From: a virus
Lineage: Duplodnaviria; Caudoviricetes
IMG/VR virus record: IMGVR_UViG_3300025875_000068
Coordinates: 1 to 36,468 of that record
Direction: 5' to 3' (one strand)
Length of the DNA stretch: 36,468 nt
Part shown: one piece after another, positions 97 through 35,362 of the stretch
How positions within the stretch are numbered: position 1 is the stretch's first letter
Layout: the number at the start of each line of letters is the position of its first letter
Made by a program: the position numbers and the translations under genes
Notes under the pieces: model-generated
Told to the model about the DNA's origin: nothing
Seen by the model: only the letters and a program-made list of their open reading frames with translations
The model's database searches: none

Positions 97-1122
97 GTGC
101 GGCTTTTCTATCATCCCGAATCGGACAGCCTCTTTTGGAGCGGCGAATGGCCGTCCGATGGTCTGTGCGAGGACGTGACCGACGAAGTGAAGCTGCGCCG
201 TGCCGCCCGTGATCGCGGGATCAAGGAGCCACCGATGATTACTGTGTCGGCCGTCGAGAAGGCGGCAGCGCAGACCATCCGTGGCTGCGGCACGATCTGC
301 AAAGACGAGCCGCAGAGGGTCGCGTTCTACAAGGAATTGCCGGCAGACAGCACGCCGTTGCAGGTCGCTCAAGCGTTCGCGGGCGTGCGTTCGGGCGGCC
401 TGGCCGGTGCGATCCAGACGAGCTACAAGAAGTGGGACCGAAAGCCGGCCGACTTCTATCCGACGCCGTTCGACGTGACGCACTCGCTCTTGCCGCTGGT
501 CCAGACGCTCGCCGACTCCGTTATCTTGGACGAACGGCCGTTCCGGATTTGGGAGCCGTGCTGCGGCGATCTCGACATGACGCGGGTGCTTCAGCACGCC
601 GGCTACGAAGTTACTTCCACCGATATCCGCGATACGGGCGTGATCCCGTTCGGCGAGGGCTTTGGTGGCTTCGACTTCCTCAATGATGATCCGGTTGAGA
701 AATTCGGATGGGAGCCGCAGCCGGACATGATCGTGATGAACCCGCCGTTCAATCTGGCGGCCGAGTTTATCGAGCGGGCGCTGCGCTACACGCCGAACGT
801 CGCCTGTTTGATGAAGATCGACTATTGGAATGCCGTCAGCCGGCTCCCGCTGTGGCAGCGCAATATCCCGCAATTCTTTCTGCCACTGACGTGGCGCCCT
901 GCCTTCCTCAAGGCTGAGCGCGGCAACTCACCGTTGATGAATTGCGCCTGGTGCGTGTGGACGGAGCATCGGGACACGCCGGATATGTGCGTGATCGAGC
1001 CGATGCGGAAGCTCGTCTATCCCGGCTATCAGGGTCCCGGCCTTCGCACCGCCATGTCGCGGCTTGTGCAGGCTATCGACGATCTCACGGAAGTTACTTC
1101 GCGTGTCAGCACGAACGCCTGA
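97..1122 (+). CDS. SAM-dependent DNA (amino, probably N6-adenine) methyltransferase-like protein with N-terminal extension
   Basis: DFYPTP, motif I-like IWEPCCGDLDM, TDIRD, catalytic-type NPPF (MIVMNPPF). Confidence 0.75.
   Translation: MRLFYHPESDSLFWSGEWPSDGLCEDVTDEVKLRRAARDRGIKEPPMITVSAVEKAAAQTIRGCGTICKDEPQRVAFYKELPADSTPLQVAQAFAGVRSGGLAGAIQTSYKKWDRKPADFYPTPFDVTHSLLPLVQTLADSVILDERPFRIWEPCCGDLDMTRVLQHAGYEVTSTDIRDTGVIPFGEGFGGFDFLNDDPVEKFGWEPQPDMIVMNPPFNLAAEFIERALRYTPNVACLMKIDYWNAVSRLPLWQRNIPQFFLPLTWRPAFLKAERGNSPLMNCAWCVWTEHRDTPDMCVIEPMRKLVYPGYQGPGLRTAMSRLVQAIDDLTEVTSRVSTNA
607..617. repeat. Dispersed palindrome GAAGTNACTTC, copy 1
   Basis: GAAGTTACTTC inside the methyltransferase gene (EVTS frame). 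Confidence 0.9.
1090..1100. repeat. Dispersed palindrome GAAGTNACTTC, copy 2
   Basis: GAAGTTACTTC at the methyltransferase/VRR-NUC junction. Confidence 0.9.
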
Positions 1123-1402
1123 AGGCAAGCTCAAGGAGAAGTGCCGCAGGCTCGCGCTGAAGCTCGGGCTGATGTTTCGCAACGTCGAAGGCAAGGGCTT
1201 CAAGGGCTGGCCCGACACGGCCTGCGGCAAATATCCGAAGGGCAGCGGCTTCCTGCATATCGAATTCAAGGCGCCTGGCAAAGAGCCGGAAGAGGCTCAG
1301 TGGGCGCGGATCAACGAGATCAGGGACGCGGGCGGCGAGGCGGATTGGGCAGATAGCTACGAGCGCTACTGTGAATTGATTGGCTACGATCTCGACCTAT
1401 GA
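1103..1402 (+). CDS. VRR-NUC domain nuclease (PD-(D/E)xK)
   Basis: E...GWPD...IEFKAPG...Q pattern; start taken at GTG 1103 (frame open from 1064); adjacent to SNF2 helicase. Confidence 0.85.
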   Translation: MSARTPEGKLKEKCRRLALKLGLMFRNVEGKGFKGWPDTACGKYPKGSGFLHIEFKAPGKEPEEAQWARINEIRDAGGEADWADSYERYCELIGYDLDL

Positions 1403-1409
1403 GGATGGT

Positions 1410-1613
1410 ATGACAAAAGCACAGCGCCGTGAAGCATTGCTCCTTTTCGAGAAAGGCTTCATCGTGCAGCCGCTCAGCTTTCGAGGGCTACCGCGCAACC
1501 GACCGCTTGGTGCGCTAGTCGAGATGGGCCTTGCGGACTTTGATCGAGGCCCTGCGGGCAGTTGTCTCAAGATAACCGGCTATATGCCTTTATGGTCCGA
1601 TCCGATTTGCTGA
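1410..1613 (+). CDS. Hypothetical protein (67 aa)
   Basis: ATG at 1410 preceded by GAGG; fills the gap between VRR-NUC and helicase. Confidence 0.55.
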   Translation: MTKAQRREALLLFEKGFIVQPLSFRGLPRNRPLGALVEMGLADFDRGPAGSCLKITGYMPLWSDPIC

Positions 1614-1614
1614 G

Positions 1615-3562: not shown

Positions 3563-3581
3563 TCGACATGGGTAGCCTTGA

Positions 3582-4364
3582 GTGGAAGATGCGGAAGGCG
3601 GGCGAAGCGCTCGACACGCTTCGATTCGCGCTGCGCGACAATCGCGAGTATGGGATGAGGAAGCTCGGCTACAGCAAGCCGGCGATGGGAAGACGGAGCA
3701 ACTGGCCGTGGCAGAATTAGAGACGAAGCGGCGGGGCCGGCCGCCTACGGCACGCGACGAAGTTACTTCCGATCTCCTGGCGACGGGCGAGGCGAGCATC
3801 GCGCAGATCGCGCACCTATTCCGCACGGACGCCAAGACGCTCCCGAAGCGACTTCGTCGGCTCAAGCCCGTGGCCGTTCGGCGTGGCGTCAGCATGTATA
3901 GCATCCGCGACGCCGCCGCCTATCTCGTCAAGCCTGGCTACAGCATCGAGCAGTATATCCGCCAGATGCACCCTAATGAATTGCCAGTAGGGTTGATGAA
4001 GGAGTTTTGGGCCGGTCAGAAGAGCCGTCAGAGCTACGAGCTTCAGGCCGGCGATCTTTGGGTTACTTCGCAAGTCGTCGAGGCGTTGAGCGAAGCACTT
4101 AAGGAGTTGCGGATGACGACGATGCTTTTCACAGAGACAGTGGAGCGCGAAGTCGGTATTACGGAAGATCAGCGCAAGGTCTTGCGCCGACTTACGGATG
4201 GTCTGATCGACGACGCACGCAAGGCATTGGTGGAAAAGTTTAAGCATTATGAACCTTCTTCCGGACCACAGCAGCTTTCACCCTCTAGCGGAATGGGACC
4301 CGCTGAAGACGGAGATGGCGTTCTTCCAGCCGAGGATGACTCGGAAGACCCTGACGACCTTTGA
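3582..4364 (+). CDS. Terminase small subunit (DUF1441-like); real start may be GTG 3708
   Basis: HTH-like SIAQIAHLF...YSIRDAAAYLVKP and FWAGQKSRQ...GDLW segments typical of Chi-like TerS; directly upstream of TerL. Confidence 0.8.
   Translation: MEDAEGGRSARHASIRAARQSRVWDEEARLQQAGDGKTEQLAVAELETKRRGRPPTARDEVTSDLLATGEASIAQIAHLFRTDAKTLPKRLRRLKPVAVRRGVSMYSIRDAAAYLVKPGYSIEQYIRQMHPNELPVGLMKEFWAGQKSRQSYELQAGDLWVTSQVVEALSEALKELRMTTMLFTETVEREVGITEDQRKVLRRLTDGLIDDARKALVEKFKHYEPSSGPQQLSPSSGMGPAEDGDGVLPAEDDSEDPDDL
3759..3769. repeat. Dispersed palindrome GAAGTNACTTC, copy 3
   Basis: GAAGTTACTTC in terS (EVTS frame). Confidence 0.9.
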
Positions 4365-6489
4365 GAGCCTGGGCGATCTCTTCGCGAAGGTAGCGGATCA
4401 GGCGCTTCAGCCGCCGCAGCGGATGACGGTGAGCGAGTGGGCCGAGCAGGACCGCTTCATCAATCAGCCTGGCGCTTATGTCGGCCCGTGGCGCAACGAG
4501 ACGGTTCCCTACATGGTGGAGCCGATGGACGTTCTGACGGACACGGCTTTCCAGTATTGCGTCTTCGTTGGGCCGGCTCAGTGTGCGAAGACGGACGGCC
4601 TGATCGTCAACTGGATCGGCTATTCGGCGACCGTCGATCCGATGGATATGATTGTCTATGAGAAGACTTCGGTAACGGCCCGCGACTTCTCGATCCGCCG
4701 CGTGGATCGCTTGCACAAGCATTCGCCGGCCGTGGGCGCGGCCTTGCTGCCGCAACGCGACGCCGATAACCGAACGGACAAGCAGTATAAGAACGGCATG
4801 ATCCTGACGCTGAGCCATCCGTCGAAGAACGAATTGGCCGGCAAGCCCGTGGGCCGCACCGCGATCACCGATTATGATCGTATGCCCGACGATATCGACG
4901 GGGAAGGCTCGGCCTTTGATCTGGCGGCCAAGCGCGGCACGACCTTTGGCAGCTACCGGATGCACTTGGCGGAAAGCTCGCCCTCGCGTGAAATTCTCGA
5001 TCTGAAGAAGATTCCGCAGGGCAACGAAGCTCCCCCGTGCGGCGGCATCCTGGGCCTCTACAATCGCGGGGATCGCCGCCGTTGGCATTGGCCTTGCCCT
5101 GATTGCGGAAGTTACTTCGAGGGTCTGTGGGATCACATCAAGTATGATCGGCTCGCGTCCAACATGGACTCGGCCTTGTCTGTGCGAATGGTCTGCCCGC
5201 ATTGCAACTATGCGATCAAGCCTTCGCAGCGCTTCGAGATGAATAATTGGGGCGTGTGGCTCAAGGAAGGCCAGGGCATTGACGCAAACGGCCGTATCGT
5301 CGGTGAGGGCCGGCGCTCGGATATCGCGAGCTTCTGGCTTCGCGGCGTTGCTGCGGGCCTTACGAATTGGGTCAAGCTCGTCAAGTCGTATCTCGATGCC
5401 GAGGACGACTACAATCGAACCGCGTCCGAAGAGGCGCTGAAGAAATTCTACAACACTGATCTCGGCGAACCGTATGTGCCGAAGTCGGCCGCGAACGACA
5501 ACGAGCGCACCGCCGAGACGCTTCAGGGCCGTTCCTACGCCCTGCCTTACTTCGACGATGACGATCAGCAGGATATTGGCGTGCTGCGGCTCACGTCGAA
5601 CAACGCGCCGAAGTATATCGAGCCGGCTGTGCCGGAGAACGTGCGAGCGCTCGTCGCGGCCGTGGACGTGCAGCAGAATATGTTCATCGTCCAAGTCCAC
5701 GGAATCGCTCCCGGCCGGCCGTTCGATATCGTGCTGATCGACCGATTCCAGATTCGCAATTCGAAGCGGGTGGACGAACACAGCGGCGGTTTCGAGTGGC
5801 TGAAACCAGGCAGCTACACCGATGATTGGGACTTGCTGACGGAGCATGTGATCCGCCGCACCTATCCGCTCGAAGCCGATCCGTCGCGTCGGATGCAGAT
5901 CAAGCTCACGCTCTGCGACTCGGGCGGTAAAGCCGGCGTGACGAGCAACGCTTACGCCTTCGCCCGCACGCTTCGGAAGCTCGGCCTCAACTCGAAGTTT
6001 CATCTCGTCAAGGGCGCCAGCCAAATCGAGGCGCCGCGCTATCGGATCACCTATCCGGACAACAGCAACCGGACAGGCGTGAAGGGCGGTGCTCAGGGCG
6101 ACGTGCCGGTGCTCATGCTCAATCCGCTGCTCAACAAAGACACGGTGGACAACCGGCTCGACGTGATGGTGCCTGGCGCGGGCATGGTTCACTTCCCCGA
6201 TTGGCTGCCCGATTGGTTCTACCAAGAGCTTGTCGCCGAGATCAGGGACAGCAAGAAGGGCTGGACGAATCCGAACAAGCGGCGCAACGAAGCCTGGGAT
6301 TTGCTCTACTATCTCGTCGGGGCTTGTGCTTCGTCGCTTCTCAACATAGAGAAAACCGCCTGGGAAAATCCGCCCTTGTGGCTGACGCCTCAAGATAGTA
6401 ATCCTCTCGTCGTCGCGGCCGAGCGGCAGGATGAGATCGCGCCTACAACCGAGATCGACTTCAGCAGATTTGGCCGCGCTCTGGCATAA
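4249..6489 (+). CDS. Terminase large subunit, lambda gpA family (start may be 4315 or 4336)
   Basis: PY-x-x-EPMD, Walker A-like GPAQCAKT, TDYDR, SSP coupling motif, two CPxC zinc knuckles, FYNTDLGEPY, AVDVQ, RNEAWDLLYY. Confidence 0.95.
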   Translation: MNLLPDHSSFHPLAEWDPLKTEMAFFQPRMTRKTLTTFESLGDLFAKVADQALQPPQRMTVSEWAEQDRFINQPGAYVGPWRNETVPYMVEPMDVLTDTAFQYCVFVGPAQCAKTDGLIVNWIGYSATVDPMDMIVYEKTSVTARDFSIRRVDRLHKHSPAVGAALLPQRDADNRTDKQYKNGMILTLSHPSKNELAGKPVGRTAITDYDRMPDDIDGEGSAFDLAAKRGTTFGSYRMHLAESSPSREILDLKKIPQGNEAPPCGGILGLYNRGDRRRWHWPCPDCGSYFEGLWDHIKYDRLASNMDSALSVRMVCPHCNYAIKPSQRFEMNNWGVWLKEGQGIDANGRIVGEGRRSDIASFWLRGVAAGLTNWVKLVKSYLDAEDDYNRTASEEALKKFYNTDLGEPYVPKSAANDNERTAETLQGRSYALPYFDDDDQQDIGVLRLTSNNAPKYIEPAVPENVRALVAAVDVQQNMFIVQVHGIAPGRPFDIVLIDRFQIRNSKRVDEHSGGFEWLKPGSYTDDWDLLTEHVIRRTYPLEADPSRRMQIKLTLCDSGGKAGVTSNAYAFARTLRKLGLNSKFHLVKGASQIEAPRYRITYPDNSNRTGVKGGAQGDVPVLMLNPLLNKDTVDNRLDVMVPGAGMVHFPDWLPDWFYQELVAEIRDSKKGWTNPNKRRNEAWDLLYYLVGACASSLLNIEKTAWENPPLWLTPQDSNPLVVAAERQDEIAPTTEIDFSRFGRALA
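5108..5118. repeat. Dispersed palindrome GAAGTNACTTC, copy 4
   Basis: GAAGTTACTTC in terL (GSYF frame). Confidence 0.9.
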
Positions 6490-6738: not shown

Positions 6739-8384
6739 TGGGAACCGCTCTCACCGTGATCGCGCCGGACGCTTCCGGCGAGCAACTGGCGTTCGGCGGC
6801 GGCTTGGAAGGCGCCGAGCGGACTAGCCGCGAGACCGTTTCCTGGCGGCCGGTCTTCGGCTCGCCGGATCAGTCGATCAACCCCGTTAAGCGCGAGGCCG
6901 ATGCTCGGTCCCGCGACATGGTGCTCAACGATGGTTATTCGGCCGGCGCGGTGGCGCTGCACAAGGATAGCATCGTCGGCTCGCAATACCGGCTTAACGC
7001 AAAGCCGGACTATCGAGTGCTCGGAGCCGACGCCGAGTGGGCCGAAGAGTTTGCCGTGGCCGCTGAGAGCCGCTTTAACCTTGCGGCTGAGAATGAAAGC
7101 TGCTGGTTCGACGCGGCAGGGCAACTCACCTTTACCGGCATGGTTCGGCTCGTCACAGGCGCTTTCGTCTATACCGGCGAGATTTTGGCAACGGCCGAGT
7201 GGATCAAGGACGGCCGGCCGTTCAACACCGCGATCCAGCTTGTCTCGCCGGATCGGTTGAGCAATCCCGATGGCGTGTCCGACGACCGGCTGCTGCGCGG
7301 CGGCGTGCGGAAGAACCCTCGCGGCAAGCCCATCGGCTACTATATCCGCCAGGGCCACCCCGAAGAGTGGTATGACAACCGGCAGAATTCGTGGGCCTAT
7401 ATTCCCGCGATGAAGCCGTGGGGCCGCCGCCAGGTGATCCATGTGATCGACCCGCAGCAGATCGACCAAACGCGAGGCGTCGCCGACATGGTGGCCGCGC
7501 TTAAGCACGCTCGGATGACGAAGAAGTTTTCCGAGGTCACGCTTCAGAACGCCGTTATCAACGCGAGCTTCGCGGCGGCTATCGAGTCCGAGCTTCCTTC
7601 GCCGGAAGTCGTCGCAGCGATGGGTGGTGGCAAGGAAGGCTATCAGGATGCGATTGCCAATTATCTGACGATGCTTGAAGGCTATCTCGGCGCGGCGGAT
7701 AATGTGCATATTGACGGCGCGAAGATTCCGCACTTCTTCCCCGGCACGAAGCTGAATCTGAAGCCGATGGGAACGCCTGGCGGCGTCGGAAGTGACTTCG
7801 AAGCGTCGCTGCTGCGGCGGCAGGCCGCTGTGCTCGGCGTCAGCTATGAAGAGCTTTCCCGCGATCTGTCGCGCACCAACTACTCCGGTTGGAAGGCGGG
7901 CGCGTCGATCACCGGCCGAGCGATGGGCGCTCGCAAGAAGCTCGTCGCGGATCGCTTCGCGCAGAACGTCTATGAGCTTTGGGTAGAAGAAGAGATCGCT
8001 GCGGGCAATCTGCCGCTGCCGGCTGGTCGCAATCGCACGGACTTCTACCGCGACAACGGCATGGCGAAGGCCGCCTACACCCGCGCCACCTTCGTCGGCT
8101 CCGGCATCGGCCAGATTGACGAGTTGAAGGAAACGCAGGCTGCCATGCTGCGCGTCAAGGCGGGGCTTTCGACCTACGAGATCGAGTGCGCGAAGCTCGG
8201 CCGCGACTACCGCGAAGTCTTCGAGCAGTTGGCCCGCGAACAGAAGTTGATTGGGGCGCTCGGCATCCCGGTCAACCTTGACGCGACGGCCAAGGGCAAG
8301 CAGACGGCCGCTAGCACGCTCAAGGGCGACGGCCAGAGCGACGATGCTCAGGGCGGCCAGGAAGAGGAAACCGAAGATGAATGA
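6738..8384 (+). CDS. Portal protein, lambda family
   Basis: ARSRDMVLND, QTRGV, GVSYEELSRD-x-SRTNYS, IDELKE motifs; position. Confidence 0.95.
   Translation: MGTALTVIAPDASGEQLAFGGGLEGAERTSRETVSWRPVFGSPDQSINPVKREADARSRDMVLNDGYSAGAVALHKDSIVGSQYRLNAKPDYRVLGADAEWAEEFAVAAESRFNLAAENESCWFDAAGQLTFTGMVRLVTGAFVYTGEILATAEWIKDGRPFNTAIQLVSPDRLSNPDGVSDDRLLRGGVRKNPRGKPIGYYIRQGHPEEWYDNRQNSWAYIPAMKPWGRRQVIHVIDPQQIDQTRGVADMVAALKHARMTKKFSEVTLQNAVINASFAAAIESELPSPEVVAAMGGGKEGYQDAIANYLTMLEGYLGAADNVHIDGAKIPHFFPGTKLNLKPMGTPGGVGSDFEASLLRRQAAVLGVSYEELSRDLSRTNYSGWKAGASITGRAMGARKKLVADRFAQNVYELWVEEEIAAGNLPLPAGRNRTDFYRDNGMAKAAYTRATFVGSGIGQIDELKETQAAMLRVKAGLSTYEIECAKLGRDYREVFEQLAREQKLIGALGIPVNLDATAKGKQTAASTLKGDGQSDDAQGGQEEETEDE
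7789..7799. repeat. Dispersed palindrome GAAGTNACTTC, copy 5 (central G)
   Basis: GAAGTGACTTC in portal gene (GSDF frame). Confidence 0.8.
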
Positions 8385-9786
8385 TCCCCGCGTCGCGCTG
8401 AGCCAGATCAATCTTCGGCCGTCCGCGTTCCTGCCGCAGACGCTCGATCAGTATGCGGCGAATCTCTCGACGTTCGCGACGACCGATCCGAAGAGCGGGC
8501 CTGATCTCGAAGACGCGGTTTTCGCGGGCGTCGAGTGCGCTTACGGATTCGACCGCTCGGAGCGAGCCGACCGCAAGCCCTTCGTCTATCAGGACGGCTT
8601 TGCCGTGATCCCGATTCACGGAGCGCTGCTCAACCGCTTCGCCTATTCCTGGGGCTTCGTCACCGGCTACCAGGCGATCCGGCGCCAGTTGAACGCCGCG
8701 CTCGAAGACGATGACGTGAAGACGATCATCTTTGACGTGGACAGCCCTGGCGGTGCCGTGGCTGGCAATATCGAGCTTGCCGACGAGATCAGGGCCAGCC
8801 GCGAGATCAAGCCGTCCCTGGCCGTGGTGGACGCCGTTTGCGCTTCGGCCGCCATGCCGCTCGCGAGCGCCGCCACGCAAGTCGTCGCGATCCCGAGCGC
8901 ACGCATCGGCAGCATCGGCGTTTATGTCATGCATATGGACGTGTCCGGCGCGATGGAGAAGGCCGGCGTCAAGGTGAGCTATATCGAAGCTCCCGAGGAC
9001 GGCATGAAGACTTCCGGCACGCCGTTCCGCGCTCTCTCGGATTCCGAGCGTGCGGAATTCCAGGCGAGCGTGAACAAGTCCTATGATCGCTTCGTGGCTT
9101 GCCTCACCGCAAACCGTGGCATCTCGGACAGCGCCGTGCGCGAAACGAAGGGCCGCGTCTTTGATGCGGATGAGGCTCTTGCGCTCGGATTGATTGATGC
9201 AGTAAGAACACCATCGGAAGCCGTCTCGTCGTTCCTGGCGGAATTGGCCGATGATGACACAACCGAAGAGGATGAGGACATGAACGCCAAGACCGGAACC
9301 GTTGGTTCGACCGCCGCCGCGCCTGCCGCCGCCGCGCCTGCCACGACGACCACGGAAGTTGCTTCCGCGCCTTCCGCCGATGCGATCCAGACTGCCATTG
9401 CCGCCGACCGTCAGCGCGTCGCGTCGATCAAGGCGTTGCCGGAGTCGGCCAAGCTGCCGAAGCTCGCCGATCAGCTTGCGCTCTCCGGCGCCAGCGTCGA
9501 GGACGCCAAGGCTTCGCTGACTGCCGCCATTGGCGATCTGCCCGAGCCGGCCGCCGCCGCCGCGCCCGCCGCTGGTGCGACCGCAACCGCGCCCGTGGAC
9601 GGCACCAACCATCTCGCCGCCGCGATGGGGCAGACCGAGCAGCCGAATGTCGGCGCCGGCACTGGCACCGGCCAGGCCGCCGCTCCTGGCACCGGCCAGG
9701 CCGCACTGACGGACGATCAGCAGGCCGCCGCGATCCTGGGAGATCATTCGGCCGTCACCGGTCGCCGCTACGAAGACGCCAAGTAA
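8377..9786 (+). CDS. Prohead protease, peptidase S49 family, with C-terminal scaffold region
   Basis: DVDSPGG, CASAA, IGSIGV, ALALGLID motifs; ATG 8377 with GAGGAAA upstream; Ala-rich C-terminal third. Confidence 0.92.
   Translation: MNDPRVALSQINLRPSAFLPQTLDQYAANLSTFATTDPKSGPDLEDAVFAGVECAYGFDRSERADRKPFVYQDGFAVIPIHGALLNRFAYSWGFVTGYQAIRRQLNAALEDDDVKTIIFDVDSPGGAVAGNIELADEIRASREIKPSLAVVDAVCASAAMPLASAATQVVAIPSARIGSIGVYVMHMDVSGAMEKAGVKVSYIEAPEDGMKTSGTPFRALSDSERAEFQASVNKSYDRFVACLTANRGISDSAVRETKGRVFDADEALALGLIDAVRTPSEAVSSFLAELADDDTTEEDEDMNAKTGTVGSTAAAPAAAAPATTTTEVASAPSADAIQTAIAADRQRVASIKALPESAKLPKLADQLALSGASVEDAKASLTAAIGDLPEPAAAAAPAAGATATAPVDGTNHLAAAMGQTEQPNVGAGTGTGQAAAPGTGQAALTDDQQAAAILGDHSAVTGRRYEDAK
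9280..9786 (+). CDS. Probable nested scaffolding protein (lambda Nu3-like internal start)
   Basis: In-frame ATG at 9280 preceded by GAGGATGAGGAC, at the boundary between protease domain and Ala-rich region. Confidence 0.55.
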   Translation: MNAKTGTVGSTAAAPAAAAPATTTTEVASAPSADAIQTAIAADRQRVASIKALPESAKLPKLADQLALSGASVEDAKASLTAAIGDLPEPAAAAAPAAGATATAPVDGTNHLAAAMGQTEQPNVGAGTGTGQAAAPGTGQAALTDDQQAAAILGDHSAVTGRRYEDAK

Positions 9787-10208: not shown

Positions 10209-10272
10209 GGGCCAAGCAGCAGGGCGGGACAACGGGGCAGTAGTGGCCCAAGATCAAAAGGAAAGTGGGAGC

Positions 10273-11385: not shown

Positions 11386-11396
11386 GAAGTAACTTC
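11386..11396. repeat. Dispersed palindrome GAAGTNACTTC, copy 6 (intergenic)
   Basis: GAAGTAACTTC immediately after the capsid terminator. Confidence 0.9.
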
Positions 11397-12805: not shown

Positions 12806-13354
12806 ATGTCCGATCCGAAGCAACTTCGCGTGCTCAAGAAGCTGTGCGACCATCTGGAATTCATCAACCCTGAGAACGTCGATCCGTTGACGGGTCGGCC
12901 ATACGAATTCGATCTGCGGGATAAGGTCTATCGGGGCCGCTCGATCCTTACGATTGACGACGCCGAAGACGCGATCTCGTTGTTGGAATTCCCGCGCCAA
13001 GATATCTACGAGCCGGTGGGCGAGCACGGGATCGTCCGTGTCGAGCGCATGTCCGTTATGGTGCAGGGTTGGCCCGTGGACGATCCCGAGCACCCGAGCG
13101 ATCCCGCCTATCGGCTCAAGGCCGTGGTGGGCGCTCGCTTGGCGCGAATCGTCGCGCAGAAGGACGCCGGCCGTGGGGCGGAATTTCCTGACGAATTCAT
13201 GCTAGGCAAATCGCCGGATGGAACGGGCTATGAATTGGCCTCTTTCTTGATCGCGCCTGGTGTTGTAAGACCGCCCGAAGACGCCGCATCCAGGCTTGCC
13301 ATGTTCTACATGCCGCTGGTGCTTGGCGTCCGAGTGGACGTGGCAAGGCCATAA
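12806..13354 (+). CDS. Tail terminator protein (lambda U-like)
   Basis: VYRGR, DPAYRL, PGVVRPP segments; directly upstream of tail tube gene. Confidence 0.65.
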   Translation: MSDPKQLRVLKKLCDHLEFINPENVDPLTGRPYEFDLRDKVYRGRSILTIDDAEDAISLLEFPRQDIYEPVGEHGIVRVERMSVMVQGWPVDDPEHPSDPAYRLKAVVGARLARIVAQKDAGRGAEFPDEFMLGKSPDGTGYELASFLIAPGVVRPPEDAASRLAMFYMPLVLGVRVDVARP

Positions 13355-14257: not shown

Positions 14258-14740
14258 ATGCTGTTGAAAGACTACGCGATCCCGAAGGAGCGGATTCCGC
14301 TGCCGGGGCCGAAGGTGCAGGGCGAGCAGCCCTACTTCGAGATTCGCGGACTGAATATCGACGATCTGACTTTCCTTGTGCAGCTTCATCTCGACCCCGT
14401 GACGCGGGCGGTGAAGCTCTATCAGGAGAGCCGCAAGGATATCATGGCGACGGGCAACCTGTCGCAATTCGTCCTGTCGATCATGCGCGACTTCCCCGGC
14501 CTGACGGCGGAAGTTATTTCCGCAGCCGCCGACTCGCTCGACGACGCCACGCGAGAAGTCGCCCAGCGGCTCCCCGTCAGCACGCAAACCCTGGCGCTCA
14601 CGAAGATCGTCAGCCTCACGCTTGAGGACGCTGGCGGCCTGGGAAACCTTTTGGCCGAGATGCGGGAGCGGATGGCAGAAGCCGTCCAGGCAGCCAGCGT
14701 CGAGGGCGTCAGCGCGAACGCACGGCCGAAGACGAAGTAG
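14258..14740 (+). CDS. Tail assembly chaperone (lambda G-like)
   Basis: IRGLNIDDL motif; position between tail tube and tape measure genes. Confidence 0.85.
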   Translation: MLLKDYAIPKERIPLPGPKVQGEQPYFEIRGLNIDDLTFLVQLHLDPVTRAVKLYQESRKDIMATGNLSQFVLSIMRDFPGLTAEVISAAADSLDDATREVAQRLPVSTQTLALTKIVSLTLEDAGGLGNLLAEMRERMAEAVQAASVEGVSANARPKTK

Positions 14741-19189: not shown

Positions 19190-20928
19190 CGGCCGACAAC
19201 GCCCTTCCTGTTTGGACGATCCGCCCGAATTGGGCGAGCGGCATCGTCGAGCGCCTGTCGTGGCTGACGGACGTGATTCCGTCCACCTACGGCACGGAGC
19301 AGACGCGAGCGCTGCGCCTGTCGCCGCGCCGCGAATTCGAGATGAGCTTCTTGGTTATGGACGCGGCCCGAAGTTACTTCGAGTTGTTCCTGCATCGGCT
19401 CGGCTGGACGGAATTCATGGTGCCGCTGTTCCACGACAAGGGCAAGGTGACGGCCGCGCTCGCGCCTGGTGCCGCCGTGATCCCGGTCAACACTCTGTTC
19501 CGTGAATTCACCGTGGGCGGCATGGCGGTCCTGATCGGCGACGATCCTTTCACTTTCGACAAGGTGGAGATCATCGGCAAGTCGCCTAATGATATCACCG
19601 TCAAGCCTGGCGGGATCACGCGAGCCTGGGAGAAAGGCTGCGCCATCCACCCGTTGCGGCGCACTCGGATCGAGCAGGAGAGCGCGGTGGCGGCCCTGTC
19701 GAATCGAGTGGGCGAAGCCACGCTGCGGTTCCAACTGAATCAGGCCAACGATATCGAGGACGAAGGCGCCTGGGGGCCGCTGTATCGCGGCTATCCGGTG
19801 CTCGCAACGCCGCCGAACCGGCGCGAGGCCATTGATCTCAGCTTCTTGCGGAATTCGATGGTGCTCGACAACGACCACGGCCTCACCGTGCTCGGGGACG
19901 ACGCGCAGCGGGCCTTCACGGTGCAGGTTCACAACAAGATGCTGCGGGGCCGCGCCGAGCAATTCGCCTTCAGGCAATTCCTATATCGGCTGCGCGGCCA
20001 GCAGGGCGCCATTTGGCTGCCGACCTTCAACCGCGACTTCCGCATCTCCCGCGCTAAGCTGGCCGGCACCGCGCAGATCGACATTGACAAGATCGGCTAC
20101 GCCTACACGGGCGGGGCGGTGAGCGGGCGCACGCATGTCTTCCTCCCAGGTGGGGCCACAGGCGCGATCTCAGGCACCGTGGCGGCTCCTAGCAGCCGGG
20201 AAGAGCGCCTGGTGCTCACGGCGCCCCTGGCGGCATCCCTGGCGGCCGGCAGCTACGGCAGCTTCATGGAGCCGTGTCGCCTGGCGTCGGACGATATTGA
20301 GATCACGCATCACACGGACACGGACGGCACCGCTGAGTGCAATCTGTCGTTCCGCGCCTTCCGCGATGAGCGCACGACTGCCGGCGCTATCGACATGCCG
20401 ATTCCGGCTGCCGTGAAGTCACCGCAGCGCTGCGGTGCGCCGGCTCCGGAAGAGGCCGGATGCGTTGACGAAGACACGACCGGCTGGTGGCTGAAAGTCC
20501 GCATGACGTGGGGATGGGTTAGCCCAAATACGGGGCTAGTCACTAAGAAGCCGAAAGTGGATATCTCGCCAGGCGTCGCGCTTGATACCAATGGCGATGG
20601 TTTCGAGGATACGGGTGGGCCGTCAAGCTATACGTCAGTCCGCGTGCAGGAAGGTGAATTCTTGCGGACTAGCTCAACGGAGTGGACTTGGAGCCGCACG
20701 CAATATCCCGTGGATTTTACCCGTCATCACCCGATTCAGGCGCGTTTCCAGATTCAGATTCCGATTGACTTCGGCGTAGGCGAACAGCCGCGAGCCGCTT
20801 ATGTGGAAGCGCGGCGCTATGATGAGCCGTGGCATCCTGTAGCCGGCACCGATGGGTTCTTTGGCGGCGATAGGTCTGTGCTCGGCCAAGGTGGCATCTT
20901 TCCCTTCGACTTCCTATTCGCGATCTGA
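19186..20928 (+). CDS. Distal tail/baseplate-type structural protein with C-terminal accessory region
   Basis: PNW...ERLSWLTDV...EQ-x-RALR-x-x-PRR N-terminus; follows tape measure gene with GTGA overlap. Confidence 0.7.
   Translation: MTADNALPVWTIRPNWASGIVERLSWLTDVIPSTYGTEQTRALRLSPRREFEMSFLVMDAARSYFELFLHRLGWTEFMVPLFHDKGKVTAALAPGAAVIPVNTLFREFTVGGMAVLIGDDPFTFDKVEIIGKSPNDITVKPGGITRAWEKGCAIHPLRRTRIEQESAVAALSNRVGEATLRFQLNQANDIEDEGAWGPLYRGYPVLATPPNRREAIDLSFLRNSMVLDNDHGLTVLGDDAQRAFTVQVHNKMLRGRAEQFAFRQFLYRLRGQQGAIWLPTFNRDFRISRAKLAGTAQIDIDKIGYAYTGGAVSGRTHVFLPGGATGAISGTVAAPSSREERLVLTAPLAASLAAGSYGSFMEPCRLASDDIEITHHTDTDGTAECNLSFRAFRDERTTAGAIDMPIPAAVKSPQRCGAPAPEEAGCVDEDTTGWWLKVRMTWGWVSPNTGLVTKKPKVDISPGVALDTNGDGFEDTGGPSSYTSVRVQEGEFLRTSSTEWTWSRTQYPVDFTRHHPIQARFQIQIPIDFGVGEQPRAAYVEARRYDEPWHPVAGTDGFFGGDRSVLGQGGIFPFDFLFAI
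19370..19380. repeat. Dispersed palindrome GAAGTNACTTC, copy 7
   Basis: GAAGTTACTTC (RSYF frame). Confidence 0.9.
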
Positions 20929-22032: not shown

Positions 22033-22247
22033 CGGAAGTAACTTCCGAGCTTCGCGTTCACATGCGTCATGTCCGAGCTGCTGGCATCTGCTCGAAGGGG
22101 TCACGCGCCTTCTTCGCAAAGAACGATCTCGATTGGCCCGACTTCCTTGCCAATGGTATCCCCGTGGCGATATTAGAGGATATCGGCGATCCGGTTGCGC
22201 TTCGCGCTGCGGACCAAGCGAGGGCGGAAGCAGACAATGGGCGGTAA
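22029..22247 (+). CDS. Small tail-region protein
   Basis: C-x-x-G-x-R-x-FF...LDW-x-DFL-x-NGI pattern seen in Chi-like tail modules. Confidence 0.75.
   Translation: MTEVTSELRVHMRHVRAAGICSKGSRAFFAKNDLDWPDFLANGIPVAILEDIGDPVALRAADQARAEADNGR
22035..22045. repeat. Dispersed palindrome GAAGTNACTTC, copy 8
   Basis: CGGAAGTAACTTCCG, 15-bp extended symmetry, just inside a gene start. Confidence 0.9.
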
Positions 22248-24523: not shown

Positions 24524-24534
24524 GAAGTAACTTC
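24524..24534. repeat. Dispersed palindrome GAAGTNACTTC, copy 9 (intergenic)
   Basis: GAAGTAACTTC 4 nt after the tail tip gene stop codon. Confidence 0.9.
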
Positions 24535-26238: not shown

Positions 26239-26249
26239 GAAGTAACTTC
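26239..26249. repeat. Dispersed palindrome GAAGTNACTTC, copy 10 (intergenic)
   Basis: GAAGTAACTTC 1 nt after a stop codon, upstream of the putative lysis promoter. Confidence 0.9.
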
Positions 26250-26404: not shown

Positions 26405-26875
26405 ATGATGCTCGTCAAGCTGTCGAAGACATTCCCCGTCCGCGTTACCGATTGGCTAGTCGCGTGCATCATGTTTTCGTGGTCGCTTGTCTGCTGGCGT
26501 TTAACGGAAGAAGCCTGGACATTGCCGACAATGGCCGGCCTGGCCCGCATCTTCGATCAAAACACTTGGGCCTTTCTTGCGTTCTGGATCGCGGTGACAC
26601 GGCTTTCCGCGCTGGCGATCAATGGCGCTTGGCGTCCGTCGCCGCATCTGCGGGCAGGCTGCGCGTTCCTGTCCTGCTTCTTGTGGCTTCAGATCAGTAT
26701 CGGTATGCTTTCAGCCGATGTTACTTCGCTCGGGGCCGCCGTTTATCCTTGGTTACTCGTAGCAGATATTTACAATGTGTTCCGCGCATCGCATGACGCT
26801 CGCCTGTCCGACGAGCGGGCGAGAGTGGCGTTAAAGGCGGGGAACCAGGGAAGTGACACAGCCGCCGCACATTGA
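26405..26875 (+). CDS. Multi-pass membrane protein (about 4 TM), first gene of lysis region
   Basis: Several hydrophobic segments; INGAW-x-x-SPHLR motif. Confidence 0.7.
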   Translation: MMLVKLSKTFPVRVTDWLVACIMFSWSLVCWRLTEEAWTLPTMAGLARIFDQNTWAFLAFWIAVTRLSALAINGAWRPSPHLRAGCAFLSCFLWLQISIGMLSADVTSLGAAVYPWLLVADIYNVFRASHDARLSDERARVALKAGNQGSDTAAAH

Positions 26876-27738: not shown

Positions 27739-28523
27739 GCATGAATCGAGGGCAGCTACAGGCTGTCGAGCTAGACCTTGAAGCCGCGCTGGTGAAGGTG
27801 CGGGCGCTCCTGGCCGAGTTGCCGGAAGTTACTTCGGCTCCCGCGCCGCTGCCCGTGCCGGCCAATGACGCCAGCCCTGCCTTCGCGGACTACGGCCTGT
27901 TCTATGACTTCCTTCGCGGCAACAAGATGCTCGGGCCACGGATCAGCGCCGACGAGTTTGGCGGTTGCGACGCGATCCTGAAGGCTTGCGTGCGTGCCGG
28001 CTGGCCGGTGAGCTTCACCGCCTACGCCCTGGCAACCGCCTACCTTGAGACGGCTGCGACCATGCAGCCGATCCACGAAAAGGGCGGCACAGCTTACTTC
28101 ACCCGCATGTATGATATCCAGGGTGCTCGGCCGGCCAAGGCTCGGGAGCTTGGGAATCTGACGCCTGGCGACGGTGCTCGCTACCACGGGCGCGGTTACG
28201 TCCAACTGACGGGCAAGACCAATTATGCTCGCGCTACCACGAAGCTGCGGGCGCTCGGCCTGGACGTGGATTTGGTCGCCGATCCCGATCTGGCGCTGCG
28301 GCCGGACGTGGCTGCCGCGATCATGGTCTCGGGCATGAGCGAAGGGTGGTTCACGGGGCGGAAGCTCAACGACGACCTGCCGTTGCGTGGGCCGGCGAGC
28401 TTGGCGCAATTCACCGCTAGCCGCGATATCATCAATGGGAAGGATCGAGCGGCCGAGATCGCCGCGTTCGCGCTCGATTGGCAGACCGGCCTAATGGCTG
28501 GCGGCTATCGCATCGCGGCGTAG
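27735..28523 (+). CDS. Endolysin, glycoside hydrolase family 19 (chitinase-like lysozyme fold)
   Basis: YALAT-x-x-x-ET, MQPIHE, LGN...GDG-x-RYHGRGYVQLTGKTNY, R-x-IING. Confidence 0.9.
   Translation: MSMNRGQLQAVELDLEAALVKVRALLAELPEVTSAPAPLPVPANDASPAFADYGLFYDFLRGNKMLGPRISADEFGGCDAILKACVRAGWPVSFTAYALATAYLETAATMQPIHEKGGTAYFTRMYDIQGARPAKARELGNLTPGDGARYHGRGYVQLTGKTNYARATTKLRALGLDVDLVADPDLALRPDVAAAIMVSGMSEGWFTGRKLNDDLPLRGPASLAQFTASRDIINGKDRAAEIAAFALDWQTGLMAGGYRIAA
27825..27835. repeat. Dispersed palindrome GAAGTNACTTC, copy 11
   Basis: GAAGTTACTTC in the endolysin linker (EVTS frame). Confidence 0.9.
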
Positions 28524-31111: not shown

Positions 31112-31120
31112 CCTGGTCGA

Positions 31121-32341
31121 TCAGATATCGTCCGGATCGTCGTTGTCAACGGTCGGAACGCTCGGCGGCATGATCGCCTGCTCGCCATCGTCCTCGGAAG
31201 TTGCTTCCGGAGCCGGAGCTTCAGGCGCCGCTTCGGGGGCAGGAGCCGGGGCAGCAGCAGCCGCAGGCTTCGCGCCGCCTCCACTCTTCTTCGCGCCGCC
31301 TCCACTCTTCTTCGCGCCGCCGCCGCTCTTCTTCGCCGCAGTCGGCTTGGCAGCGGGCTTCGCGGCAGCGGGCTTCGCGGCGGCCGGTGCCGGGGCAGGC
31401 TCGGGAGCCGGGACGGTGATCGCAATCGTGATCGAGCCATCCGTGGTGAGCGCCTGGCTCTCGGCGTCAGCCGGGATGCCGGTGACTTCGCGCACCTTGC
31501 CGGCGATGGCCGCGAGCACGGCCTTCACCGAGTCACCCTGGCCGAGCGACACGTCATGCCGAATCGTCTGCATCTTCGGGCCGGCGAGATGCTTCTTGGT
31601 GGCCTTGGACTTGCCGGCCGCCTTGGCGCTGTTGACGGCTGCGACGATCTTTTCTTCGGCCTTCTTCGGGTCCTTCGTCTTGCGAAGGGTCTCGATTGCC
31701 AGCGTCGAGGACACGTTGCCTTCGAGCACGGCCGTCCGGACCTTGGCCGGCGCCCCGACGAGCACCAGCAGATCGTCGATGTAGCGCCCGGTCACGCTCA
31801 GGCGCTTGGCGATGGTCTCCTTGTCGAACAGTGGCTCGTCACCGTTCTTCATGCCCATGAGGCGCGAGACGACGACGCCCTGCTCGTAAGGCGTCAACGG
31901 CCGGCCGCTGTTCTCCTGCACCAGCGCAATCGTCAGATCGGCGATGCTGGAGTCGGCTGGCTTGAGCGAGATCGGCAAGCCGGGGATCGTCTCGTTGTCG
32001 TCCACGGCTTCGGCGTTGATCGCGTTGACGGCTTCGAGCCGCGTGTGGCCGTCCGTGACATAGATCACGTCAGCTTCACCGTCCTTGCCGATGAAGCCGG
32101 CCAGGGGCTTGTTCTGATAATAGCCGTTCTCGCGGATCGACTGCTTCAGGCTCTCGACGTGGCCCTGATAGTCGTCGGTCTCGCGAACGCGGACGTTGAA
32201 ACCAGGGAGCACCCGAAGCTGATCGACGGGAACGATGAAGTCGGTGTTCTTGCCGGTCGCGACGGAGATCGCGCCCTTCTGCTTGCCCGCTTCGAGCGTG
32301 AGATCGAGATTGATGGGCGGGAGAGTCATTTTCTTCGACAT
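31121..32341 (-). CDS. ParB/Srx-family DNA-binding protein with HTH and Ala/Lys/Pro-rich tail
   Basis: GFNVR, L-x-x-SI-x-x-NG, VTDGHTRLEA (GxxR motif), QENSGRPLTPYE, HTH KETIAKRLSVTGRYIDDLL. Confidence 0.88.
   Translation of the reverse strand: MSKKMTLPPINLDLTLEAGKQKGAISVATGKNTDFIVPVDQLRVLPGFNVRVRETDDYQGHVESLKQSIRENGYYQNKPLAGFIGKDGEADVIYVTDGHTRLEAVNAINAEAVDDNETIPGLPISLKPADSSIADLTIALVQENSGRPLTPYEQGVVVSRLMGMKNGDEPLFDKETIAKRLSVTGRYIDDLLVLVGAPAKVRTAVLEGNVSSTLAIETLRKTKDPKKAEEKIVAAVNSAKAAGKSKATKKHLAGPKMQTIRHDVSLGQGDSVKAVLAAIAGKVREVTGIPADAESQALTTDGSITIAITVPAPEPAPAPAAAKPAAAKPAAKPTAAKKSGGGAKKSGGGAKKSGGGAKPAAAAAPAPAPEAAPEAPAPEATSEDDGEQAIMPPSVPTVDNDDPDDI
31269..31335. repeat. Three tandem 21-bp units encoding AKKSGGG in the ParB-like tail
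   Basis: TTCGCGCCGCCTCCACTCTTC x2 plus a third synonymous variant. Confidence 0.85.
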
Positions 32342-32373
32342 GGTGAATTCCTTCCTCTTTCGGCGTCAGCGCA

Positions 32374-32658
32374 TTAGTGCAAACCGAGAGCGTTCCGATA
32401 AGTTTCGAGCAAGGCGTCCTGCTCGTCGCGTGCGTGCTTCTCCATCTTCCGGAGCCTCACGATCTGCCGCATGATCTTGGAGTCAAATCCGGTTGCCTTG
32501 GCTTCCGAATAAACGTCCTTGATATCGTCGGCGACGCCCTTCTTCTCTTCTTCCAGGCGCTCGATGCGCTCGATGAAGAGCCGAAGCTGTTCGGCCGACA
32601 CGTCGCCGTCCGAATTATGGCCCGCTTTCACACGCGGATTGATTGGCTTGTCGGTCAC
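32374..32658 (-). CDS. gapR: GapR-family nucleoid-associated protein (DUF2312)
   Basis: GHNS...[38 protein letters not shown][12 protein letters not shown]; start taken at GTG 32658 after GAGGAA. Confidence 0.93.
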
Positions 32659-32689
32659 TCTCGTCACTTCCTCGCTTGTGACGCCGATT

Positions 32690-32718
32690 GCTCTGCTCGC
32701 AATCGTGCGGGTTGTCAA
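32690..32718 (-). promoter_or_regulatory. Putative promoter of the gapR-parB pair
   Basis: TTGACA-N17-CAGAGC on the - strand; shares GCGAGYAGAGC with the 26309-26337 element. Confidence 0.4.
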
Positions 32719-32739
32719 TTCACTGTTTCGGCTTGACGG

Positions 32740-32756
32740 GCGGAAGTTACTTCCGC
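32740..32756. repeat. Dispersed palindrome copy 12, longest form (17 bp, intergenic)
   Basis: GCGGAAGTTACTTCCGC, about 20 bp upstream of the putative gapR-parB -35 box. Confidence 0.9.
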
Positions 32757-32762
32757 GCAGAG

Positions 32763-33035: not shown

Positions 33036-33328
33036 TTTGGCTCCACTTGGCTGAGCACGGATGCCGCCAGGCTTTCCGCGTCGTCGATAAAGGGCTTGAG
33101 CGCTTTCGCGAAGATGCCGACGAGATGATCCGTCATGTCGCACCCGCAGATCGCGCTATACTTCTCGGGATCGAGATCGGAATTCGTAATCGCGGTGGCG
33201 AAGGCGCTCTTGATCTCGTCGTTGAGGATGGCACGGTTCTGCTCGATAGGGCCGCCCTGCTTCGCGGTCTGCATGATCGCGCTGGCCGTGCCGCCCATCT
33301 TCTTGCTGCTCTTCCGTGCCATCCTCAT
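33032..33328 (-). CDS. Hypothetical protein (about 97 aa)
   Basis: RBS GGGAG, operon-like packing, good codon usage. Confidence 0.7.
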   Translation of the reverse strand: MRMARKSSKKMGGTASAIMQTAKQGGPIEQNRAILNDEIKSAFATAITNSDLDPEKYSAICGCDMTDHLVGIFAKALKPFIDDAESLAASVLSQVEPK

Positions 33329-33337
33329 TCTCCCTGG

Positions 33338-34318
33338 TTAGGTGCGCTTGCCGTCTTCCTTGAGGCGGTTTTCGATCTTGTGATCTTCCCGCGTCGCGTT
33401 GAAGGCGAGCTTACCGTCGATCATCATAGCAACGTCCTGCGGCGCAAGGAAGTCGGCCGTTTCTGGATCGCCAATGGCGGCCGGCGTCTTGCGGATCGCC
33501 TCGTAACGCCAAGCGATCTCGCAAATCTCCTTGAACATGCGATCACCGGGATTGTTCGCGGGATCGGGCTGGATGATTCGGCCGGCTAAGAGGGCTCCGC
33601 AGAAGTCGGCCATGCGGATCGCGAGGTCGCCCATCTCGACGCCGAGCGCCGGGAATTGCGGCAGCTTGTCGTCCGCGCAGCCTTGAAGCCAGCCCTCATA
33701 GGCTTCGGCCATCTCTGTCACCATAAGGATCAGAAGCTCGCCAGGGCTGCGCTTCTTCGGGGCGCCCGTGTCGATATCGGTCCACCAGCCGGCCTTCACG
33801 TTCCGCAAATGAACGTCCGTGAAGAACAGCCGCAGCGCCGACTCATGCTTGGTGCCGGTGTCGTTCGACTCGTTGTATGGGATGATTCGCCCTTCGAGCA
33901 CGACTTCGGGCAGATGAAGACCCTGGCGGAAGTCCTGGGCCATCGCAAGGAAGGCGTTGGCCGTCACTTCGAGATGCGGGGCGATGGCCGGCCGCTGCTT
34001 CGCCAGATTGCCGGCTGACGCCGCTTTCTGCTCGCACAGCCGCGCCGCAAGCTCCCGTTCTTCGACGTTGCCGGTGACTTCGAGCAGCTTGGGTGTCTCA
34101 AGCCGTGCTGCGTGCGCTCGCTCGATCTCCTGCTCGACGACGCCCGCCGCATGGATAATATCGGGCCATTGGTGCGTGCCACCTTCTTCAACTGGCGCGA
34201 GTAAGGCGACGAGATTGGCGGCGGCGGTTTCGAGCGGCGTAGCAAGATTGAGCAGCGGTGTCACGTCATAGACAGCCTGGATATCCGCTACTGCGTCTTC
34301 AACGGTTACATCGGTCAT
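33338..34318 (-). CDS. MazG-like NTP pyrophosphohydrolase domain protein with N-terminal extension
   Basis: GWW...GELLILMVTEMAEAYEG...DDKLP...VEMGDLAIRMADFCG and K-x-x-FN-x-x-R-x-DHK...R...GK end. Confidence 0.8.
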   Translation of the reverse strand: MTDVTVEDAVADIQAVYDVTPLLNLATPLETAAANLVALLAPVEEGGTHQWPDIIHAAGVVEQEIERAHAARLETPKLLEVTGNVEERELAARLCEQKAASAGNLAKQRPAIAPHLEVTANAFLAMAQDFRQGLHLPEVVLEGRIIPYNESNDTGTKHESALRLFFTDVHLRNVKAGWWTDIDTGAPKKRSPGELLILMVTEMAEAYEGWLQGCADDKLPQFPALGVEMGDLAIRMADFCGALLAGRIIQPDPANNPGDRMFKEICEIAWRYEAIRKTPAAIGDPETADFLAPQDVAMMIDGKLAFNATREDHKIENRLKEDGKRT

Positions 34319-34636
34319 GGTCGGTCCTTATCAACGGTGAGGAAGGGACTTCGCGGCGGCGCCTTTCTCGTAGGCGCCTGGCGCGGCAAGGTTCGTAGCG
34401 AACGCGGTCGGCACCGGCATACGGCGAGGCTCATCGAGCAATTCGACGCGATTGATATCATACCAATTCCCGTCTTTCGCCTCACCGTCCTTGTCCACGT
34501 CCGGCGTAAGCACAACTTGAAGGCAGCCGTAAAGATCGAAGCAAACGGACGTAACGGTTCCCGCAAACTTGCTGACTTTATCCCTGCCCCGCTGGCCGAG
34601 ATAGTTGATGGATTCTTGGATCATGGTCGGTCCTTA
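34315..34636 (-). repeat. 16-bp direct repeat TAAGGACCGACCATGA (34315-34330 and 34621-34636) flanking one gene
   Basis: Identical stop/RBS/start block read at both positions. Confidence 0.85.
34331..34624 (-). CDS. Hypothetical protein (97 aa, small beta-barrel-like)
   Basis: LG-x-x-x-RD-x-x-x-x-F-x-G-x-x-T...LYGC...W-x-D-x-x-R pattern seen in phage proteins; RBS AAGGA. Confidence 0.75.
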   Translation of the reverse strand: MIQESINYLGQRGRDKVSKFAGTVTSVCFDLYGCLQVVLTPDVDKDGEAKDGNWYDINRVELLDEPRRMPVPTAFATNLAAPGAYEKGAAAKSLPHR

Positions 34637-35362
34637 CTTCCGTGCGGCTGCGTTGGCGTTCTGCTCGGCGTAGCCTTCCATCCGAGCGCCGTTGATCCCC
34701 TCAGCCTGAAGAAAGTCGTCCCAGGCGTAGGCGTCCACCCATTGCTTCGGGTGGTGAAAGCCCCATCGCCGCAGCACGGGGCCAGTGATGAAGATCGTGT
34801 GGACCGGCATCTCGCCGCCCTTGATGCCGCCAATCGTCCATCCTGGCGGGTAGCGATCAAGCTCAAGGCGGTGGGCGAACGATCCTGAGCGGCGAAAGCG
34901 GACGGCGCCAGGGCCGTAGCGCTGCTTCACATGCACGCCACCTTCGCTGATCGTGTGCTCGGTATATTCACCCTCAAGCACGATGCTGAAATTCCACCAG
35001 GGATGATCGTGCAGGGCCGTGTCTTCGTCGCTGCGGCGAACGATGTGGAAGTAGCAGTTGAAGAAGGCGTTGCGCTTGATCCGCCACCAGCGCAGCATGT
35101 AAGGCGGGATATCGGTGTTGCTCGGAATCCGCACGTCCGGCAGTCGGCCGGTGGTGACGCGGTTGTGCTCCCGAAGTAACTTCCGAAGAAGCCAATCCGG
35201 CACGCGCTTGAAGACGGTCGCGAAGGCCCACAGGAACAGATAGACCGGCAGCACAGCCGCCCAAGCGGCGTAGCCCTTGATCCACTCGGCGGCGCTATAC
35301 CGCGTTCCTGGCGGATTGCGGACGGTGCCGCCGCGCTTGTTCTTCTCGTTGATGACTTGCAT
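34634..35362 (-). CDS. Cupin-fold protein with N-terminal hydrophobic segment
   Basis: SD...LHDHPW...SIVLEGEY-x-E...HRLEL...IFITGP-x-x-RRWGF. Confidence 0.75.
   Translation of the reverse strand: MQVINEKNKRGGTVRNPPGTRYSAAEWIKGYAAWAAVLPVYLFLWAFATVFKRVPDWLLRKLLREHNRVTTGRLPDVRIPSNTDIPPYMLRWWRIKRNAFFNCYFHIVRRSDEDTALHDHPWWNFSIVLEGEYTEHTISEGGVHVKQRYGPGAVRFRRSGSFAHRLELDRYPPGWTIGGIKGGEMPVHTIFITGPVLRRWGFHHPKQWVDAYAWDDFLQAEGINGARMEGYAEQNANAAARK
35173..35183. repeat. Dispersed palindrome GAAGTNACTTC, copy 13
   Basis: GAAGTAACTTC on +; reads RKLLR (rare TTA codon) in the - strand cupin gene. Confidence 0.9.

Follow-up and report, generated by a model that had tools for sequence, protein, structure and literature searches.

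The DNA analyzed here (IMG/VR record IMGVR_UViG_3300025875_000068; 36,468 nt, hereafter the window) is a 36.5-kb partial genome of a Casjensviridae (Chi/Nazgul-like) phage, in which a 13-letter palindrome, GAAGTNACTTC, recurs in 13 perfect and 8 one-mismatch copies. This array is real, selected, and evenly spaced, and it is best read as a series of sites for a dimeric DNA-binding protein. The palindrome is likely the loading site of a clamp formed by the phage's own ParB-family protein, which would work without ParA and coat the phage DNA.

Counts, coding context, and spacing of the palindrome

Seventeen of the 21 sites are coding and occupy all three frames, and the other four, starting at positions 11386, 24524, 26239, and 32743, are intergenic. 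An earlier note on this DNA had listed the 13 perfect and 8 one-mismatch positions, and all 21 coordinates are exact; its remarks that G/C flanks the perfect copies (on both sides in 13/13), that the motif lies in all three frames and in four intergenic gaps, and that no gap between sites exceeds about 3.4 kb are likewise borne out. The gaps have a mean of 1728 nt and a maximum of 3372 nt, and their coefficient of variation is 0.52 compared with 0.93 under random placement (P = 0.0014), showing that the sites are spaced more evenly than random.

The GC content of the window is 62.1%, close to the ~63% assumed earlier. Dinucleotide shuffling (100 shuffles) yielded a mean of 0.58 matches with at most one mismatch, and never more than 2, versus 21 observed. 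A codon-preserving shuffle, in which the proteins were kept fixed and synonymous codons were permuted over 2000 rounds, gave a mean of 0.11 perfect copies within genes (maximum, 2) versus 9 observed and a mean of 1.91 copies with at most one mismatch (maximum, 7) versus 17 observed. The earlier note had proposed this comparison, and the shuffles never came near the observed number. A chance or peptide-driven repeat is thereby refuted by both kinds of shuffle, none of the 2000 codon-preserving rounds having exceeded 2 perfect copies. Such a repeat would be in keeping with the preference of the sites for tolerant codon contexts, but not with the use of three frames, the intergenic copies, and the conservation in many relatives, and its probability is negligible. 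The weak copies may still include one or two chance matches, given the shuffle mean of 1.91; the lowest profile scores are those of the sites at 34342, 3845, and 26717.

The sites force codons that are rare in the window, as the earlier note had pointed out: TTA accounts for 0.9% of leucine codons, GTA for 2.1% of valine codons, and AGT for 4.7% of serine codons. Moreover, homologous sites in the terminase and chaperone genes of two relatives, Carli and G007, carry an A-type word and encode an altered protein. At the perfect site 5108..5118 (terminase large subunit, GSYF frame), both relatives have a GGAAAT-type word, and Ser-Tyr is changed to Asn-His or Asn-Tyr; at the one-mismatch site 14510..14520 (tail chaperone gene), EVIS becomes EIIS with GAAATCATTTC, a change of Val to Ile. 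Phages that lack ParB have no palindrome at these terminase and chaperone positions. The Carli word GGAAAN3TTTCC occurs in 30 copies, and G007 has mixed words. The excess over the codon-preserving shuffle, together with this switching of words at homologous sites despite amino acid changes, indicates that selection acts on the DNA and not on the protein, as had been proposed. On the coding strand the central base is T in 110 cases and A in 39, an excess that probably arises in part from the avoidance of stop codons, and the flanks occur in both orientations.

Co-occurrence of the array with ParB in related phages

The likely reader of the sites is a ParB-family protein of 406 amino acids encoded at 31121-32341 (minus strand), with a ParB nucleoside triphosphate (NTP)-binding domain together with a helix-turn-helix; the earlier note had left this gene unnamed and had not linked it to the palindromes. 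Perfect copies number 13 to 41 in the window and in ten ParB-positive relatives, counted on whole or nearly whole records (five records were covered to 60,000 nt of 60.1 to 61.8 kb), and 0 in 11 ParB-less relatives. The ten array carriers include BcepNazgul, which has a Burkholderia host and a ParB only 27% identical. ParB is the sole gene family that is present in 11/11 dense-array genomes and in 0/11 array-less genomes. Among the viral loci found to carry ParB, 14 of 19 have at least 3 perfect copies. The compared array genomes have 23 to 49 sites each.

Two tests were made blind to ParB. The first drew on 536 capsid-selected loci, the best 80 of which were taken; from these, 31 records were searched, 18 of them near complete. 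Two of these 18 have dense arrays (G017 and G023), and both are ParB positive; 12 have neither ParB nor array, and 4 have ParB with a sparse array or none. All 12 near-complete ParB-less records have zero perfect copies in their capsid loci of 13 to 21 kb. The second test took the first 80 of 120 motif-scan loci, giving 39 contigs of at least 25 kb, of which 6 have arrays of 13 to 33 copies and 33 have 1 or 2 copies. The six array contigs are all half-genomes of the window's phage group; ParB is present in both of those that span its region, and the remaining four come from elsewhere in the genome. The 33 low-copy contigs gave a single distant ParB match.

Judged from these sequence comparisons, the window ParB very probably binds the palindromic word. 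That something else reads it, namely, a host factor, a small Cro-like helix-turn-helix protein, GapR, a methyltransferase, or the terminase, is a remote prospect, even though co-inheritance can mislead and the gene-family screen took in proteins of about 45 residues and up, fast-evolving genes aside. The Cro-like protein is found in 10/11 array-positive and 10/11 array-less genomes, the methyltransferase in only 7/11 dense-array genomes, and the terminase in both groups alike. The gene for the GapR-like nucleoid protein (32374-32658, minus strand) lies directly upstream of parB, and this gene pair recurs in only 8/11 dense-array relatives, so that GapR is not required for the array.

The host of the window phage is likely an alphaproteobacterium, as suggested by the GapR gene, the hosts of the closest phages (R22L, Carli, and AH2 among cultured ones), and a Rhizobium bin in which ParB has a 68% match. 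A scan of host genomes, suggested in the earlier note and run on 120 genomes of this likely host class, showed that the word is rare there, with 7 matches in 342.6 Mb compared with 12 in 36 kb of the window. In a 6.1-Mb bin, all 13 copies sit on a phage contig. A host regulon was rejected on both of these grounds. Active depletion of the word in hosts is not claimed, as word composition is the probable reason why the reversed word has 59 matches and this one 7. Furthermore, a host reader is made less likely by the presence of this word in both Erythrobacter and Burkholderia phages.

The ParB-family protein and the probable use of the sites

The window ParB contains the motifs GFNVR, GxxR (G98-R101), and ENSGRPL, and residues G98, R101, N49, R51, N144, and R147 are invariant in 41 ParB homologs. 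It matches a PHROG ParB-like family with an E value of 3.7e-43, and its matches to Pfam KorB and HTH_ParB fall below the cut-off; a sequence search of the PDB returned no useful match, and a scan of viral contigs with the single ParB sequence returned none. The structure model has a predicted local distance difference test score of 89.7 and presents the ParB NTP-binding fold with its Box I-III motifs. The top structural match is KorB (8qa9; Z score of 13.3, root mean square deviation of 3.4, 192 residues aligned), tied with Noc (Z 13.0) and Caulobacter ParB (Z 12.9). A helix-turn-helix is modeled at about residues 174 to 195 (helices 174-181 and 185-195), and DNA-bound domains are matched with Z scores of 8.5 (6y93), 7.7 (6s6h), and 6.8 (1r71). 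As to a possible C-terminal dimerization domain, the monomer model shows a helix at 272-287 flanked by extended, fairly confident segments. The tail is rich in Lys, Ala, and Pro and the C terminus is acidic, the latter feature being common to many relatives; in nearly all Casjensviridae members the acidic terminus ends mostly in Asp, Glu, or Gly plus Ile or Leu. A role of this terminus as a partner-binding motif is possible.

Noc carries an N-terminal amphipathic membrane helix. No such helix was found in the window ParB, where the hydrophobic moment of the N-terminal windows is at most 0.19 and residues 1 to 17 are coil. No ParA was found in 24 relatives (control, 14/14), nor a deviant Walker A motif in the window, itself a partial genome. 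The absence of ParA from all 24 indicates that this is not a ParABS system. The ParA-binding motif [LFI]G[KR]G[LFI] was not found in the window ParB, and P1 ParB likewise lacks it; orphan ParBs are described as widespread, with a nucleotide preference that is unpredictable from sequence (PMC12704722). Within the family, the recognition helix and the helix after it are reported to determine specificity (PMC7383237).

In the ParB family, the helix-turn-helix recognizes a palindrome, after which the clamp closes and slides (PMC11790492, PMC12704722, PMC13768133). The phage ParB would similarly bind its palindrome as a dimer through the helix-turn-helix and would then close into a predicted nucleotide-gated sliding clamp, and such clamps would coat phage DNA and spare host DNA. 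Given binding, the balance tips slightly toward a main use in even coverage of the unintegrated genome, for its compaction and organization during infection and for recruitment of partners through the acidic tail. Coverage of phage DNA is favored over promoter positions by the even spacing, by the turnover of positions with density kept, and by the rarity of the word in hosts. The intragenic location of 17/21 sites and the spacing beyond random in 13/14 genomes (P < 0.05) also speak for coating.

The turnover is seen in the number of site positions shared with the window, which is 8/13 for G001, 6/13 for R22L, 2/10 for Carli, 0/9 for BcepNazgul, and 0/9 for G011. Array density persists in the distant relatives as positions turn over, so that a dispersed palindrome at nonhomologous positions, which the earlier note had suggested looking for, does exist in distant phages such as BcepNazgul. 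A sparser, C-type word is present in AH2, G014, G015, and G020, with AASTNASTT counts of 8, 11, 18, and 34, respectively, versus 0 to 2 in 12 controls. When a profile was built from G015 and G020, the counts were 7 versus 1 sites in AH2 and, for G014, 10 versus 0; AH2, which can seem array-less, has a sparse C-type array by both analyses. The spacing is not significantly even in AH2, G014, or G015.

Coating could be taken further, in a tentative proposal of phage self-labeling. A host-rare word placed every 1 to 2 kb, even at the cost of amino acids, might load ParB only on phage DNA and so build a shell-less phage nucleoid, which would compact the replicating genome, recruit enzymes, and shield it from host defenses.

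The main rival to coating assigns the same ParB and sites chiefly to KorB-like global transcription control, with clamps sliding to promoters and repressing or timing them. KorB, whose partner is IncC, binds the 13-bp palindrome OB, of which twelve sites are reported on about 60 kb of RK2 (PMC13768133, PMC11790492). Global control draws support from this precedent, from the place of KorB among the tied best structural matches, from the conservation of some site positions, and from a conserved site beside the likely gapR-parB promoter. In the window, this last site (CGGAAGTTACTTCCG, perfect, 32743..32753) is 24 nt upstream of a TTGACA predicted as the −35 element of gapR-parB (32713..32718, minus strand) and is, in the favored coating reading as well, a candidate autoregulatory site that probably regulates this operon. 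Among 14 genomes compared, 11 have a site 3 to 24 nt upstream of the TTGACA preceding gapR/parB, BcepNazgul has one 60 nt upstream, and G006 and G017 have none near it. Site-TTGACA pairs, counted by hand, number 22 among 223 TTGACA hexamers, and 11 of the 22 are the gapR/parB ones, leaving 11 further pairs at other hexamers. The recurrence of the promoter-side site also speaks for ParB as the reader of the word. Nevertheless, global control as the main job is unlikely, because each genome has 23 to 49 evenly spaced sites, most of them within genes of one long head-tail operon, because site positions turn over, and because, in the screened size range, no second gene family follows the array in the way expected of a KorA-like lock.

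A further alternative to coating is a distributed centromere for an unintegrated prophage or carrier state that borrows the ParA or SMC of its host. Phage N15 has dispersed centromere sites, and integrase is missing from 12/12 tested dense-array genomes but present in 7/8 ParB-positive relatives with a sparse array or none. This contrast follows the tree, however, and integrase is likewise missing from 4 tested ParB-less genomes. With no homolog of the AH2 repressor found in dense-array genomes, no ParA in the 24 relatives, and no ParA-binding motif in the window ParB, a centromere is improbable.

Several observations weigh against ParB as the clamp that reads and coats. ParB is insufficient for an array, as G016, G010, RG-2014, and ST79 have a homolog and no array was found in them, G008 and G013 have a homolog but only traces of an array, and Milano and Lumi have palindromes clustered in one region despite a ParB homolog. 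The 11 ParB-less genomes amount to about three independent lineages with two near-duplicate pairs (FastTree tree). No ParB was seen in G020 despite its 34 variant sites, on a 72%-complete contig that stops before the ParB region, and in three genomes (G017, G187, and G191) there are two ParB-like genes each. A residue-to-base code was sought and not found, both Arg and Lys at position 186 occurring with the G-type word, and the ParB of G007 retains RYLDD yet the A-type word is preferred. The positional conservation among closer relatives (G001, above) is regulator-like, and the lower size limit of the gene-family screen counts on the same side.

The genomes with two ParB-like genes are among those with the densest arrays, at 41 perfect copies in 57 kb and 33 in about 30 kb. 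Lumi has 16 copies of TTACT-N5-AGTAA and Milano 9 of TACAA-N5-TTGTA, each in one genome region, and these clustered palindromes are more like operators or promoters. In Pseudomonas phage SS2019XI, which has a distant ParB homolog, the dispersed word is another one, ATCAAC-N5-GTTGAT-like, with 11 sites (P = 0.06 for their spacing). The related ParB-like proteins of pYD38-A, KP591P1, and Sa179lw have one common recognition helix, and TTTATNATAAA is in excess there (13, 14, and 9 copies, respectively, with at most one mismatch; reversed control, 2 to 3). In a plasmid collection, 131 records have ParB homologs, and the 15 matches listed are 38 to 41% identical, many of them from Pseudomonas and Xanthomonas.

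The plus strand of the window encodes helicase, terminase, head, tail, and lysis proteins, and the minus strand carries small genes. Perfect sites lie in the DNA methyltransferase gene (607..617, EVTS frame) and at its 3′ end (1090..1100), in the gene for the terminase small subunit (3759..3769, a position common to 5 relatives), and in the portal (7789..7799), tail assembly (19370..19380), endolysin (27825..27835), and cupin-type (35173..35183, RKLL frame) genes; another, CGGAAGTAACTTCCG, is at the start of a tail chaperone gene (22035..22045). Intergenic perfect sites follow the major capsid gene (11386..11396, with a site nearby in 9/13 relatives), the tail tip gene (24524..24534), and the tail fiber genes (26239..26249). 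The major capsid gene itself (10243-11319) has no site inside it in the window and 13 compared relatives, and one usually follows the gene. One-mismatch sites are found in the head protease (9355..9365), tail terminator (12817..12827), and tape measure (17827..17837) genes and within parB (31197..31207), with weak ones in the terminase small subunit gene (3845..3855) and a hypothetical gene (26717..26727); by profile score the weakest, at 34342..34352, is maybe a chance match. Among neighboring minus-strand genes, 35820-36008 is a small putative R67/DfrB dihydrofolate reductase-like gene (Pfam E value of 1e-20; NCBIfam DfrB, 81 bits, under the cut-off of 137), and 29164-30702 encodes a glycosyl hydrolase of family 5 (512 amino acids) that has a Pro/Thr-rich linker and is out of the ordinary among Casjensviridae-type phages.

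Comparison with known systems

ParB clamps are known to serve in the segregation of chromosomes and plasmids, in nucleoid occlusion, and in repression over long distances. The phage system resembles ParB-parS and Noc-NBS in domain order, fold, and a helix-turn-helix of a palindrome-reading family, and Noc sites are dispersed too (PMC7383237, PMC12704722). It differs from them in having no ParA, no LG[RK]GL motif, no clustering, and no amphipathic N-terminal helix, in a site of 13 bp instead of 16 bp, and in the extra Lys/Ala/Pro-rich tail of its ParB. Its sites are evenly dispersed, whereas those of ParABS systems are clustered at one centromere region.

The likeness to KorB and OB is closer, as the phage, too, has its ParB gene on a replicon that carries dispersed 13-bp palindromes. 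Both have the ParB-family fold (Z 13.3), many copies over about 60 kb of a palindrome with a variable central base, one site close upstream of a promoter, and a phosphate-binding motif without glutamate (GARRYR in KorB and GHTRLEA in the window ParB) (PMC11790492, PMC13768133). In contrast, the phage word is different, its sites are 2 to 4 times more numerous, evenly spaced, and mostly intragenic, and the phage has neither IncC/ParA nor integrase, RK2 being an IncP plasmid. A co-repressor was not found in the phage, in the sense that no second family tracks the array; no direct search for KorA was made. Evenly spaced, intragenic sites in a phage that lacks both ParA and integrase suggest an additional use of ParB, the covering of a whole viral genome. 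The natural word variants of the cultured phages R22L (PQ394074.1, with ParB as ORF29) and Carli permit a specificity swap, and a ParB-site pair with a word rare in bacterial genomes could act as a DNA label.

The earlier note knew of no description of such an array in Chi-like phages, and no published account of a Casjensviridae-type array was found in the open literature, subscription papers and supplements aside; among the listed papers that contain the literal motif, all are unrelated by title. GapR and ParB genes are reported for a 56,415-bp Erythrobacter phage, likely R22L to judge by its identical size and ORF numbers, in a source whose available text does not contain "palindrom" (PMC12185513). 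A similar array has, however, been published for Cluster O mycobacteriophages, in which a 17-bp palindrome, without a function assigned by the authors, occurs 34 times and gp90 is a ParB-like protein (PMC4351075). Like the phages described here, they have more than 30 palindromes along the genome, about a third of them in genes, which are absent from the host, and they lack integrase and parAB; unlike them, they use another word and are denser in sites toward one genome end (PMC4351075). The stoperators of Cluster A phages are also many short sites along a phage genome, some in genes, but they are asymmetric and oriented with transcription (PMC4351075), whereas the window sites are palindromic with flanks in both orientations. 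The Cluster O authors considered gp90 one of three possible DNA-binding proteins and thought a ParB role in genome stability unlikely (PMC4351075). Corndog gp90 has a match to the window ParB family that extends over both the NTP domain and the helix-turn-helix (probability of 95%, E value of 2e-8) and is, by this match, a distant member of it. The window ParB family points to a possible reader of the Cluster O array, which was published in 2015 as unexplained, and the self-labeling design, if true, would also account for its repeats.

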